A DNA stretch of 64,000 nucleotides from assembly GCA_946500615.1 (NCBI GenBank), contig CAMMWP010000004.1:4585-68584 (forward strand). The letters run 5' to 3'. The DNA comes from an uncultured Clostridium sp. (GTDB taxonomy: Bacteria; Bacillota; Clostridia; TANB77; CAG-508). Position 1 is the stretch's first letter. The number at the start of each line of letters is the position of its first letter. The notes beneath the pieces were generated by a model, which saw only the letters and a list, made by a program, of their open reading frames with translations, was not told where the DNA came from and did no database searches. Positions 2 through 1,910 of this stretch are shown one piece after another. Position numbers and translations under genes: made by a program.

Positions 2-1570
2 TTGTCAAGAGATGATAACGAAGATAAAAAAGAAAGTGAAAGTATAAGAAATCAAAACAAAATATTAAGACAATATGTTGCAGATTTATCTAAAAAAGAA
101 CCACAAAATCAATTTATTATTGTAAAAGACTATGTTGATGATGGATATACTGGAACTAATTTTAATAGACCTGGTTTTATACAAATGATTAAAGACATTG
201 AAAATGGAATGATTAATATGGTTATAGTCAAAGATTTAACTAGATTTGGTCGTAAAACAGATGAAGTATTAAGATATTATCAAGAATATTTTCCATCAAA
301 AAAAATTAGATTTATAACTGCAACAGAAGATACCATAGATACATATTACAAAGAAGATGACGACTTTATACCATTTAAAGCTGTAATGAGTGAGCAATAT
401 CCAAAAGAAACTTCAAGAAAAATAAAAGCAGTAAAGATTGCAAAAGCAAAACAAGGATTATTTCAAGGAAATACGGCTCCATATGGATATAAAAAAAGTC
501 CAAATAATAAAAATCAATTAATTATTGATAAACAAGTTTCAGAAATTATAAAAGAAATTTTTGAAAAATATTCAAAAGGATATACTCGTACAGAAATAGT
601 AAAAAGCTTAAATGACAGAAATATTGCACCGCCAAGAGAATATTTAAATATAAAAGGAATTAAATCAGAACATAAAGGTTGGAGTGAAATTACAATAACT
701 AGAATAGTCAGTAATCTAGTATATTTAGGAACAATGGTAGGAGCAAAAACAGTAAAGCCAAGTTTTAGAAGAAAAGAAAGAATCATAAATACAAAAGAGA
801 ATCAAATCATTGTTAAAAATATGCACGAACCTATTATTGACATAGAAACTTTTAATAAATGCCAATGCCTAAAAGAGAAATTTAAAAATAATCGTAACCG
901 TAAATACGATGATATTTTTAAAGGATTAATTTATTGTAAGGAGTGTGGAAGCATTTCGACATTAAAACATAAAGAAAAACTATCAAAAAATGGCAACAAA
1001 TGCGAGATAAATTCCTACATATGTTCTGAAGCTAACAAAGGTATAAATAAAAAGTGTAATAATACCAAATCTATAAGTAGTAAGAAATTATATAATCTAA
1101 TAATTCCAATTATAGAAAATGAATGTAAAAGTATTTCAATTGAAGATAATGATGTAAAAAAAGTTATGAGTAATTTAGAGAAAGGCATAAATACAGAATG
1201 TCATAGACTTGAAAATGAAAAACTCGCATTAATTAATAAAATTGATAAATTAAATGAACAAATAAAAACGATATATAATGATAAATTAGAAAATATCATA
1301 ACTAATGACACCTTTTTATCAATTAAAAAACAAAAAGAAGATGAAATCGAAAATTGTAAAAAGCAAATTTGTGACTTAGAACAAAAAATACAAGTAGAAA
1401 AAGGTAAATATACTATAAGTTACAAACAAATTAAAAAGCTATCAGAGGAGTTTTTAAATACAGAAAAGATAACTAAACAGGTATTGAATAAATTAATAGA
1501 TAAAATCGAATTTGACGCAAATAGAAACATAAATTTAAAGCTAGTATTTTCAAATATTAAAACTAATTAA
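2..1570 (+). CDS. Large serine recombinase (integrase/excisionase of an intervening or prophage-like element); 5' end cut by the window edge
   Basis: The ORF is open to the window edge. It has a resolvase-type catalytic region (LSRDD.., YVDDGYTGTNFNRPGF, MVIVKDLTRFGRK) and a recombinase domain (APYGYKK, RIVSNLVYLGT). A Cys cluster (CKECGS..C..C, Zn ribbon) and a long Lys/Glu coiled-coil tail follow. This is the large serine recombinase layout. Confidence 0.9.
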   Translation: MSRDDNEDKKESESIRNQNKILRQYVADLSKKEPQNQFIIVKDYVDDGYTGTNFNRPGFIQMIKDIENGMINMVIVKDLTRFGRKTDEVLRYYQEYFPSKKIRFITATEDTIDTYYKEDDDFIPFKAVMSEQYPKETSRKIKAVKIAKAKQGLFQGNTAPYGYKKSPNNKNQLIIDKQVSEIIKEIFEKYSKGYTRTEIVKSLNDRNIAPPREYLNIKGIKSEHKGWSEITITRIVSNLVYLGTMVGAKTVKPSFRRKERIINTKENQIIVKNMHEPIIDIETFNKCQCLKEKFKNNRNRKYDDIFKGLIYCKECGSISTLKHKEKLSKNGNKCEINSYICSEANKGINKKCNNTKSISSKKLYNLIIPIIENECKSISIEDNDVKKVMSNLEKGINTECHRLENEKLALINKIDKLNEQIKTIYNDKLENIITNDTFLSIKKQKEDEIENCKKQICDLEQKIQVEKGKYTISYKQIKKLSEEFLNTEKITKQVLNKLIDKIEFDANRNINLKLVFSNIKTN

Positions 1571-1643
1571 AAACTGGTATCCTTAAAGCGACAGCATCAG
1601 TAGATGCAGTTCTAATAAGGACACCACAAAAAATATCCTTAAT

Positions 1644-1910
1644 AGAACAGCAGCATATATTGCAGCAAAAGGAGACCCAATTGCGAACTTACAAGAAGAC
1701 TTGGCAGCAGAACAAAAAGCAAGAGCCACATATGAAAAACTAATTGATTTATGTAGAGACAATCCAGATGTAGTAGATCCATTAAGATATTTAAGAGAAA
1801 GAGAAGTAGTACACTTCCAAAGATTCGGCGAAGCATTAAGAGGTGTTCAAGACAAATTAGCAGAAAAAAAATATTATATGAATAAAAACAACAACTGTGG
1901 TTGCAATTAA
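1644..1910 (+). pseudogene. cotJC: 3' portion of a split cotJC (Mn-catalase-family spore coat protein); no start codon and no 5' part in the window
   Basis: The frame is open from 1587 without a start codon. From ~1644 it reads TAAYIAAKGDPIANLQEDLAAEQKARATYEKLIDL..DPLRYLREREVVHFQRFGEAL. This matches the C-terminal third of B. subtilis CotJC as I recall it (..TASYIQAKGDPIADLYEDIAAEEKARATYQWLIDI..LRFLREREIVH..). Confidence 0.8.

Follow-up and report, generated by a model that had tools for sequence, protein, structure and literature searches.

Large serine recombinases (LSRs) excise a number of elements from genes of the sporulation mother cell, among them skin from sigK, SPbeta from spsM, vfbin from spoVFB, vrin from spoVR, gin from gerE and yin from yabG (PMC4191935, PMC5025042, PMC5595907, PMC10747680). 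Here we describe a 64,000-nt stretch of DNA from an uncultured Clostridium sp. (contig CAMMWP010000004.1, positions 4,585 to 68,584; hereafter the window) that begins with a large serine recombinase gene followed by the 3' part of the spore coat gene cotJC. A preliminary description of this stretch had proposed that cotJC is split by a skin-like intervening element. Our analysis indicates with high confidence that positions 2-1910 are the attR end of a small non-phage mobile element inserted at codon 118 of cotJC. Loci in related genomes are given L numbers and database proteins P numbers below.

The phenomenon itself is known, and interruption of cotJC has been mentioned before. In the available portions of two preprints, a skin-like element in cotJC of Laceyella sacchari is mentioned in a single sentence (bioRxiv 10.1101/2022.02.25.481979), and cotJC is listed, likewise in one sentence, among sporulation genes with phage or transposon insertions, a finding attributed to Abe et al. 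2013 (bioRxiv 10.1101/2021.11.22.469490). These mentions share the target and the idea with the present locus but concern other taxa, and in those portions they come without junction analysis or a family-level description. Full-text literature searches found no description of this cotJC element family, its attachment (att) sites or its prevalence, and some of the features reported here would be new variants if confirmed.

In size and content the closest analogue is gin, which interrupts gerE of Bacillus cereus ATCC 10987 (PMC5595907). Each is a small element of non-phage character that lies within a sporulation gene of the mother cell, each combines a large serine recombinase (GirC in gin) with a tiny partner (the 42-aa GirX in gin, 34-38 aa here), and in both attP is an inverted repeat around a central dinucleotide (PMC5595907). 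They differ in target (gerE versus cotJC) and host (Bacillus versus gut Clostridia), in the number of recombinase genes (three in gin, one here), and in expression, as girC is sporulation-specific whereas the present recombinase has a sigma-A-like promoter (PMC5595907). A palindromic TA centre with both orientations and a second att-type site are features that the available part of the gin paper does not report (PMC5595907). Excision of gin has been demonstrated, while the element described here is known from its sequence.

C. difficile skin offers a regulatory parallel. Its recombinase CD1231 is made constitutively from a sigma-A promoter and is controlled through the small recombination directionality factor (RDF) CD1234, itself under sigma-E and SpoIIID, and the same logic may apply here (PMC5025042). 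That element is prophage-like with 19 genes, and CD1234, which we compare by size only, has 72 aa; its target sigK is a regulator, which makes excision the timer of a developmental switch, while cotJC encodes a structural component of the coat (PMC5025042). In B. subtilis, excision of SPbeta (SprA-SprB, spsM) and skin (SpoIVCA, sigK) occurs only in the mother cell and rebuilds a late gene while the spore keeps the element, as we propose for cotJC; those elements span tens of kb and are prophages or their relics, and SPbeta also excises on DNA damage (PMC4191935).

Another phylum and cell type provide a further parallel. In heterocystous cyanobacteria, the fdxN, nifD and hupL elements, with an XisF-type serine recombinase, are excised from genes needed only in the terminally differentiated cell. 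Programmed excision in such a cell is the proposed likeness; the recombinase described here is no XisF equivalog, and its match to XisF falls below threshold.

The recombinase gene and the attR junction

The features at the start of the window are as follows.

2..1570, + strand: large serine recombinase gene, 3' 96% (residues 20-541 of 541 plus stop), assigned by Pfam, PHROG and 100% identity to P0001
1576..1625, no strand: site 1, a spare palindromic att-type site, GGTATCCTTAAAGCGACAGCATCA-GT-AGATGCAGTTCTAATAAGGACACC, with centre GT at 1600-1601 (inverted repeat I1, 24-nt arms)
1633..1655, + strand: element-side arm (P arm) of attR, ATATCCTTAATAGAACAGCAGCA, which aligns without gaps with the recombinase-side arms of ~20 related elements
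1656..1657, no strand: TA, the probable crossover dinucleotide, at bases 1 and 2 of cotJC codon 118 (TAT, Tyr)
1658..1676, + strand: host-side arm (B') of attR, TATTGCAGCAAAAGGAGAC, matching the empty site of intact cotJC
1656..1910, + strand: cotJC 3' part, codons 118 to ~201 plus stop, without a start codon or a ribosome-binding site of its own

The recombinase frame (2-1570) contains 522 open codons and a TAA stop at 1568-1570. Its first 19 residues lie outside the window, the edge of which cuts the gene at the catalytic-serine motif R-L-S-R-D-D; the full-length recombinase is represented by the 541-aa database protein P0001, and the complete gene is visible at 3162-4787 of L001. Pfam identified the Resolvase (PF00239, E 9.9e-19), Recombinase (PF07508, E 1.1e-18) and Zn_ribbon_recom (PF13408, E 3.3e-07, above cut-off) domains, and PHROG matched the protein to integrase phrog_95 (E 2.4e-89). 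The serine nucleophile stands in the YxRxS context of the LSR catalytic domain (...YKRLSRDD... in P0001), and the Recombinase and zinc-ribbon domains and the length of 541 aa place the protein within the class (~450-700 aa). With three LSR domains and a stop ending at 1570, the gene agrees with the earlier proposal of a serine recombinase that ends 74 bp ahead of cotJC-like codons. The best NCBIfam matches, CcrB and XisF, were sub-threshold (XisF 76.7 bits versus a cut-off of 375). Across relatives, the ratio of nonsynonymous to synonymous polymorphism (pN/pS) of the recombinase was estimated at 0.20.

Downstream, the open frame at 1587-1910 had been described as lacking a start codon; its earliest ATG, GTG or TTG is a TTG at 1701, leaving it without a usable start. 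The frame matched the Pfam Mn_catalase family (PF05067, E 1.5e-18) only over profile positions 129-197, and over its 87 C-terminal residues it shares 93% identity with the ends of intact 203-204-aa CotJC proteins (P0239, P0240). P0240 is encoded directly behind cotJA and cotJB at L047. The PF05067 match, together with the cotJA-cotJB-cotJC operon seen in this relative, identifies the fragment as CotJC of the Mn-catalase family. It comprises 84 of ~201 codons, approximately the last 42% of the gene. Its earlier identification as C-terminal cotJC was right, and its size, given as a third, was too low.

The preliminary description also noted a direct repeat, TATCCTTAA-N4-ACAGCA, at 1578-1596 and 1634-1652. 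The repeat is exact, unique in the window and absent from 100 shuffled sequences (0 in 100), and at 77% identity it can be lengthened to 22 nt. Copy 1 forms the left arm of site 1, which lies directly 3' of the recombinase stop; a 7-nt A-rich spacer follows, and then copy 2, the P arm of attR (site 2).

To define the crossover, junctions of related elements were aligned in the reading direction of cotJC, with the intact genes of L047-L049 added. This alignment gave attB as GTACCATTTACWGCAGCA-TA-TATTGCAGCMAAAGG and attP as the near-perfect palindrome CCTTA-N5-ACAGCAKCA-xx-TGNTGNNGT-N5-TAAGG, where xx is TA in the window. The CC/GG motif of attB appears ~4 bp nearer the centre than that of attP, as would suit the att sites of an LSR, imperfect inverted repeats around a 2-bp crossover in which attP exceeds attB in length. 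Of the 19 positions of the host arm (1658-1676), all but one (1676, C versus T) agree with the empty site of L047, and all but two with that of L048/L049, GTACCATTTACWGCAGCA-TA-TATTGCAGCMAAAGGAGAT. The P arm departs from intact cotJC (L047, L048) upstream of ACAGCAGCA.

At the crossover position, attL and attR share only AC in L015, only TAT in L002 and TG in L050, which places the crossover of the window at the TA of 1656-1657. Across the family the crossover always falls on the first two bases of codon 118 (TAT/TAC Tyr, TGT Cys, GTT Val or ACT Thr). Alignment to uninterrupted cotJC, which the preliminary description had suggested as a check, thus defined the dinucleotide, but not where that description had expected it: the junction had been sought within 1571-1650 and lies 6 bp to the right. 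The displacement arose because the last 9 nt of the P arm mimic cotJC codons 115-117 (T-A-A). Since the inner 9-12 nt of the element arm are the same as the host arm (ACAGCAKCA), the window appears to encode T-A-A-Y before the true junction. The similarity to cotJC reported from ~1644 is real, but the T-A-A codons at 1647-1655 belong to the element arm and not to the host gene.

The arrangement of a recombinase followed by two att-type sites also occurs in L001, L002, L009, L022, L026 and L081-L090. In L013, L015 and L060 the element integrated through site 1 and kept an intact TA site 2 at its opposite end. One attP x attB event through either site explains both layouts, and we therefore take the two to be alternative attP sites that differ in their centres; site 1 of the window's element may still be usable. 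Naturally occurring att sites of this kind, which offer matched central dinucleotides as well as a palindromic centre, are relevant to the question of what determines orientation and to integrase tool design.

An element family at codon 118 of cotJC

A protein search with the recombinase returned ~90 clusters with 75-89% identity across the alignment. Most are 536-554 aa long and a few are truncated, and every one came from gut-type metagenomes or metagenome-assembled genomes. In a scan of one genome per species, a recombinase of 75-89% identity was present at 23 loci, all labelled uncultured Clostridia, Clostridium or Lachnospiraceae, and cotJ flanks were found by tblastn with reconstituted CotJC, CotJB and CotJA. 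The recombinase lies between or beside cotJC fragments at 20 of these 23 species-level loci; the exceptions are an apparent circle (L017), a tandem-like junction (L014) and a 1.6-kb contig too short to judge (L029). The layout of the window, with the 5' half present, was found in L009, L015, L018, L024, L030 and L050. In close relatives (e.g. L009, L015, L050) the cotJA-cotJB-cotJC 5' part lies 3.4-7.7 kb away at the other end of the element, which upholds the view that a serine-recombinase element splits cotJC, with the window holding its attR.

Joining the two halves in silico at the dinucleotide produced uninterrupted ORFs (open reading frames) of 193-209 aa with a Met start in L002, L009, L013, L015 and L021, and intact cotJABC operons in L047, L048 and L049 represent the empty site. 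The insertion thus falls within the coding sequence of a sporulation gene, at codon 118 of cotJC in the cotJA-cotJB-cotJC operon, with expression taken to be as in B. subtilis. In that species cotJ is expressed in the mother cell under sigma-E. The split also accounts for the annotation of cotJC in these genomes, either as a pair of fragments or as a pseudogene. Sporulation genes that are interrupted and rebuilt by programmed DNA excision have been described in only a few cultured strains of Bacillus and Clostridium, and this family would make them common in uncultured gut Clostridia.

Complete elements measure 3.4-7.7 kb from the outer-arm motif CTTAGAGTAGACAACCATTCACC to the recombinase-side arm. 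All follow one plan: an outer arm, cargo that varies, a conserved ORF of 34-38 aa and, at the edge, a large serine recombinase (541 aa). The smallest element (L050) has the recombinase, the 37-aa ORF and, as sole cargo, a DUF2207_C membrane protein; such a minimal 3.4-kb system would be convenient for studying how a tiny RDF controls a large serine recombinase. In the lineage of the window the cargo is a DUF2207_C membrane protein and an MNT/HepT toxin-antitoxin pair, and other complete elements carry HTH_36, RhuM, MNT/HepT, NUDIX or DUF5710. At the outer end of L050 we observed an inverted copy of recombinase 5' untranslated sequence (GAATGGTTGTCTA..., 6265-6294 and 7948-7977) and an inverted copy of the region upstream of the small ORF (6329-6352 / 7655-7678). 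These inverted copies are conserved across the family and may be a binding site for a regulator or for the recombinase.

No phage genes were seen in the complete elements, which lack structural, packaging and lysis genes and a phage-related integrase. The closest integrases in INPHARED and IMG/VR are at most 31% identical to the recombinase, and a phage origin was rejected for want of a close relative in either collection. The flanks are cotJC, so the element is not skin proper, which is defined by sigK as target and a SpoIVCA orthologue. The label skin-like, in the sense of a large prophage relic, does not fit this small non-phage element, which resembles the B. cereus element gin more closely.

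Over 10.5 kb the contig L001 and the window share 98.2% identity, indicating another strain of the same species. Upstream of its recombinase are, in order, the 37-aa ORF, DUF2207_C, the MNT/HepT pair and an rve transposase gene at the contig end. The rve gene (insertion sequence-type integrase core, 2-607) is cut by the end of the contig, lies inside or beside the element, and probably caused the assembly break.

Two loci appear to record the element outside its usual setting. The first and last 99 nt of the 5,679-bp contig L017 are identical, giving a 5,580-bp circle that carries attP; the repeat runs from the 3' end of the recombinase to exactly the crossover TA, beyond which the sequence enters the outer arm. 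This is the output expected of a de Bruijn assembler given a circle, and L017 is probably the excised circular form, with a head-to-tail tandem as the alternative. The break at the TA would fit a sample that also contained the integrated form. At L014 (11623-11760), the recombinase stop, site 1 and the A-rich spacer are followed by an arm-TA-outer-arm junction into the outer end of another element, as though two elements stood in head-to-tail tandem on this 22.9-kb contig; within 10 kb upstream of that junction no cotJC was found. When metagenomes were scanned for attP junctions, only L060 was found, and it is an integrated element of the L013 type and not a circle.

The element occurs in two orientations. 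In class I, the arrangement of the window, cotJC 5', recombinase and cotJC 3' all read in the same direction, and in class II (L002-4, L013, L020, L021, L028) the recombinase converges on cotJC 5'. Among species representatives 16 are class I and 4 class II, and the classes are interleaved in the recombinase tree. In serine integrases of the phiC31 and Bxb1 type, orientation is set only by the central dinucleotide. Elements with a TA centre, which is its own reverse complement and the usual centre in both classes, were found in both orientations, and lineages with an AC/GT centre show the orientation that their centre predicts: AC stands on the element strand in both L013 and L015, and the host sense is AC in L015 (class I) and GT in L013 (class II). 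The TG lineage (the P0046 set) is class I in 10/10 contexts shown, of 19 contigs. Because the 10 examined P0016 contigs (of 16; TA-type) showed no orientation polymorphism and shared one downstream junction and orientation, orientation seems to be set at integration, and frequent flipping of TA elements in place is unsupported.

The best 120 intact CotJC matches (P0121-P0240; L045 3001-3624) carry two main target-site alleles, VPF[DSN]A[NST]C[LI]AC in ~58 and PFTA[AS]Y[IL]A in ~57. Both can be occupied, by elements with the matching centre (TG versus TA). The idea that VPF[DSN]ANCLAC is an immune escape variant was rejected, because that very allele is occupied in L050-L059, by the element with a TG centre.

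Proposed excision in the mother cell and competing explanations

Taken as a whole, we favor the explanation that the element at codon 118 is excised in the mother cell to rebuild cotJC, with a probability of roughly 0.6. In the genome of the window, cotJA-cotJB-cotJC(1-117) would lie a few kb to the left, and at the predicted left junction the TA would link the outer arm TGNTGNNGT-N5-TAAGGAG...CTTAGAGTAGACAACCATTCACC with ...CCATTTACAGCAGCA of cotJC codons 1-117. The small upstream ORF would be the RDF and would be switched on in the mother cell; attL x attR excision would then rebuild cotJC only in this terminally differentiated cell, with a predicted attB of GTACCATTTACWGCAGCA-TA-TATTGCAGCAAAAGGAGAC in the window's strain. 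The spore would keep the element, as in C. difficile skin, SPbeta and gin. Programmed excision during sporulation, which would follow the pattern of these systems, is somewhat more likely than not.

The region upstream of the recombinase is compatible with such control. In all loci the 400 bp ahead of the gene conserve, in order, a terminator-like hairpin, the 34-38-aa ORF and a promoter. The ORF has a strong AGAGGTG ribosome-binding site, is intact in 24/24 loci with a pN/pS of 0.33, and had no match in Pfam or PHROG; its position and size make it a candidate RDF. The sequence TTTACA-17-TATAAT, 46 nt before the recombinase start, is conserved and is the best match of the region (11/12), suggesting that the recombinase is made from a sigma-A-type promoter.

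Several observations weigh against excision and rebuilding of cotJC in the mother cell. The timing and cell type of excision are argued by analogy with the known elements. The upstream region yielded only one match to a sporulation sigma-factor promoter, a weak sigma-E-like TAATATT-N15-CATAAACC before the small ORF, in which the first C is not conserved and which was compared with the B. subtilis consensus; inspection of the aligned upstream sequence revealed no SpoIIID box (consensus from PMC5025042). The attL junction and the cotJC 5' half of the window's genome were not recovered, as the window begins inside the recombinase and L001, the only contig with an identical recombinase, ends 3.1 kb upstream at the rve gene. 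The scan of species representatives yielded no relative closer than 86%, and the nearest recombinases of all, P0007 and P0003, are on short contigs without the left end. The ratio of nonsynonymous to synonymous substitution (dN/dS) in the cotJC halves of 19 split relatives and the window is 0.08, and L010 is the sole truncated copy. Synonymous divergence of the recombinase and of cotJC is uncorrelated (Spearman 0.05), however, and elements move between lineages, so purifying selection on the halves may predate the insertions. Given this lack of co-divergence between the elements and cotJC, the dN/dS value was set aside as uninformative about selection after insertion. Two copies appear damaged: the 5' half in L011 (3802-4156) has a one-base frameshift at codon 61/62, and the 3' half in L010 (2498-2689) stops at codon 177. 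In either case a split copy may be decaying, the assembly may be wrong or another insertion may have occurred. Finally, CotJC-type catalases have paralogues, and C. difficile tolerates loss of CotJC (PMC11222575).

An alternative is an ordinary integrative mobile element for which cotJC is a harmless landing site, with excision serving transfer and carriers lacking CotJC or using a paralogue. We consider this account rather unlikely, though it draws on several lines of evidence. The family appears to be horizontally mobile, moving without co-divergence with cotJC; the circular form came from a gut metagenome bin, in which sporulating cells are not necessarily the majority; a sigma-A-type promoter precedes the recombinase; and toxin-antitoxin pairs, RhuM, Fic and an insertion sequence are cargo typical of selfish elements. 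The tolerated loss of CotJC and the extra damage in a few split copies point the same way. Neutral tolerance, however, would predict scattered targets, whereas other positions of this late mother-cell gene are occupied as well, several beside unrelated serine recombinases. Both halves of cotJC remain in frame in nearly all carriers, and a small conserved ORF lies where the RDFs of proven intervening elements lie. Moreover, every experimentally tested case of the same architecture excises in sporulation (PMC4191935, PMC5025042, PMC5595907).

In the window's genome the cotJC fragment could also be a dead remnant, the 5' part of cotJC having been lost or moved, for example through the insertion sequence seen in L001, so that the gene can no longer be rebuilt. 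The unrecovered left junction, the rve transposase gene 3 kb upstream at the contig end of L001, and the truncated or multiply interrupted 5' parts of the relatives L005, L008 and L016 would fit this account. It is nonetheless improbable, given that the 3' part in the window is free of stops and 93% identical to intact CotJC, and that the recombinase and both att-type sites are intact, as is the small ORF in L001. That the cotJC fragment is an element-borne replacement 3' end that keeps the target intact, as occurs in many tRNA-targeting islands, might be suggested by the mimicry of codons 115-117, but this mimicry spans only 9-12 nt, complete loci hold the 3' part outside the arms with the 5' part ending unreplaced at codon 118, and these loci and the circular L017, which lacks the cotJC 3' part, refute the idea.

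Other interruptions of cotJC and neighboring genes

Codon 118 is not the only position at which cotJC is broken. In relatives, breaks occur at about codons 1, 61, 97, 118, 137 and 177, with up to three per gene, so that at least four further positions besides codon 118 are occupied. The loci of the further breaks are as follows.

L016: 5-70, 4216-4287 and 8811-8999
L027: 685-891 and 5723-5938
L051: 4134-5759
L005/L008: codons 97-118 only
L081-L090: codon ~137
L010: codon ~177

Unrelated large serine recombinases, 25-35% identical to that of the window, lie beside the breaks at codons ~1, ~61 (L027), ~97 and ~137 (L016), and no recombinase was identified beside the remaining breaks in the sequence at hand. 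A single cotJC in L016 carries three interruptions, and L050 and L051, from the same species, differ in the presence of an extra element ahead of cotJC. The presence of several elements in one gene argues that cotJC is favored as a target and not merely tolerated. It is conceivable, although we would not put it at even odds, that cotJC in gut Clostridia is a shared landing pad to which the codon-118 family has adapted through centres that track the host allele and through its two attP sites. The crossover dinucleotide may follow the codon-118 allele of the host (TA, TG or AC/GT); the commonest centre, TA, is palindromic, which makes insertion orientation-free; and two adjacent attP sites with different centres may let one element enter different cotJC alleles. 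If cotJC is such a landing pad, all of the elements must leave in the mother cell to yield one coat protein.

Directly downstream of the cotJC fragment, window positions 2108-10486 encode a 2,792-aa secreted or surface protein. A gene of identical length in L001 has Peptidase_M26 N- and C-terminal domains and faint matches to Dockerin_1 and Glug. The next observation concerns a 180-aa ORF at 10615-11157, just upstream of which the L001 and window sequences part. It has a sub-threshold match to BclA_C, the C-terminal domain of an exosporium collagen-like protein (34 bits versus a cut-off of 38), and may be another spore-surface gene near cotJC. Rfam gave no match in the recombinase/cotJC region, and its sole match in the window was a T-box leader at 14025-14254 (RF00230, 116.9 bits), upstream of ORFs at 14318-15697.

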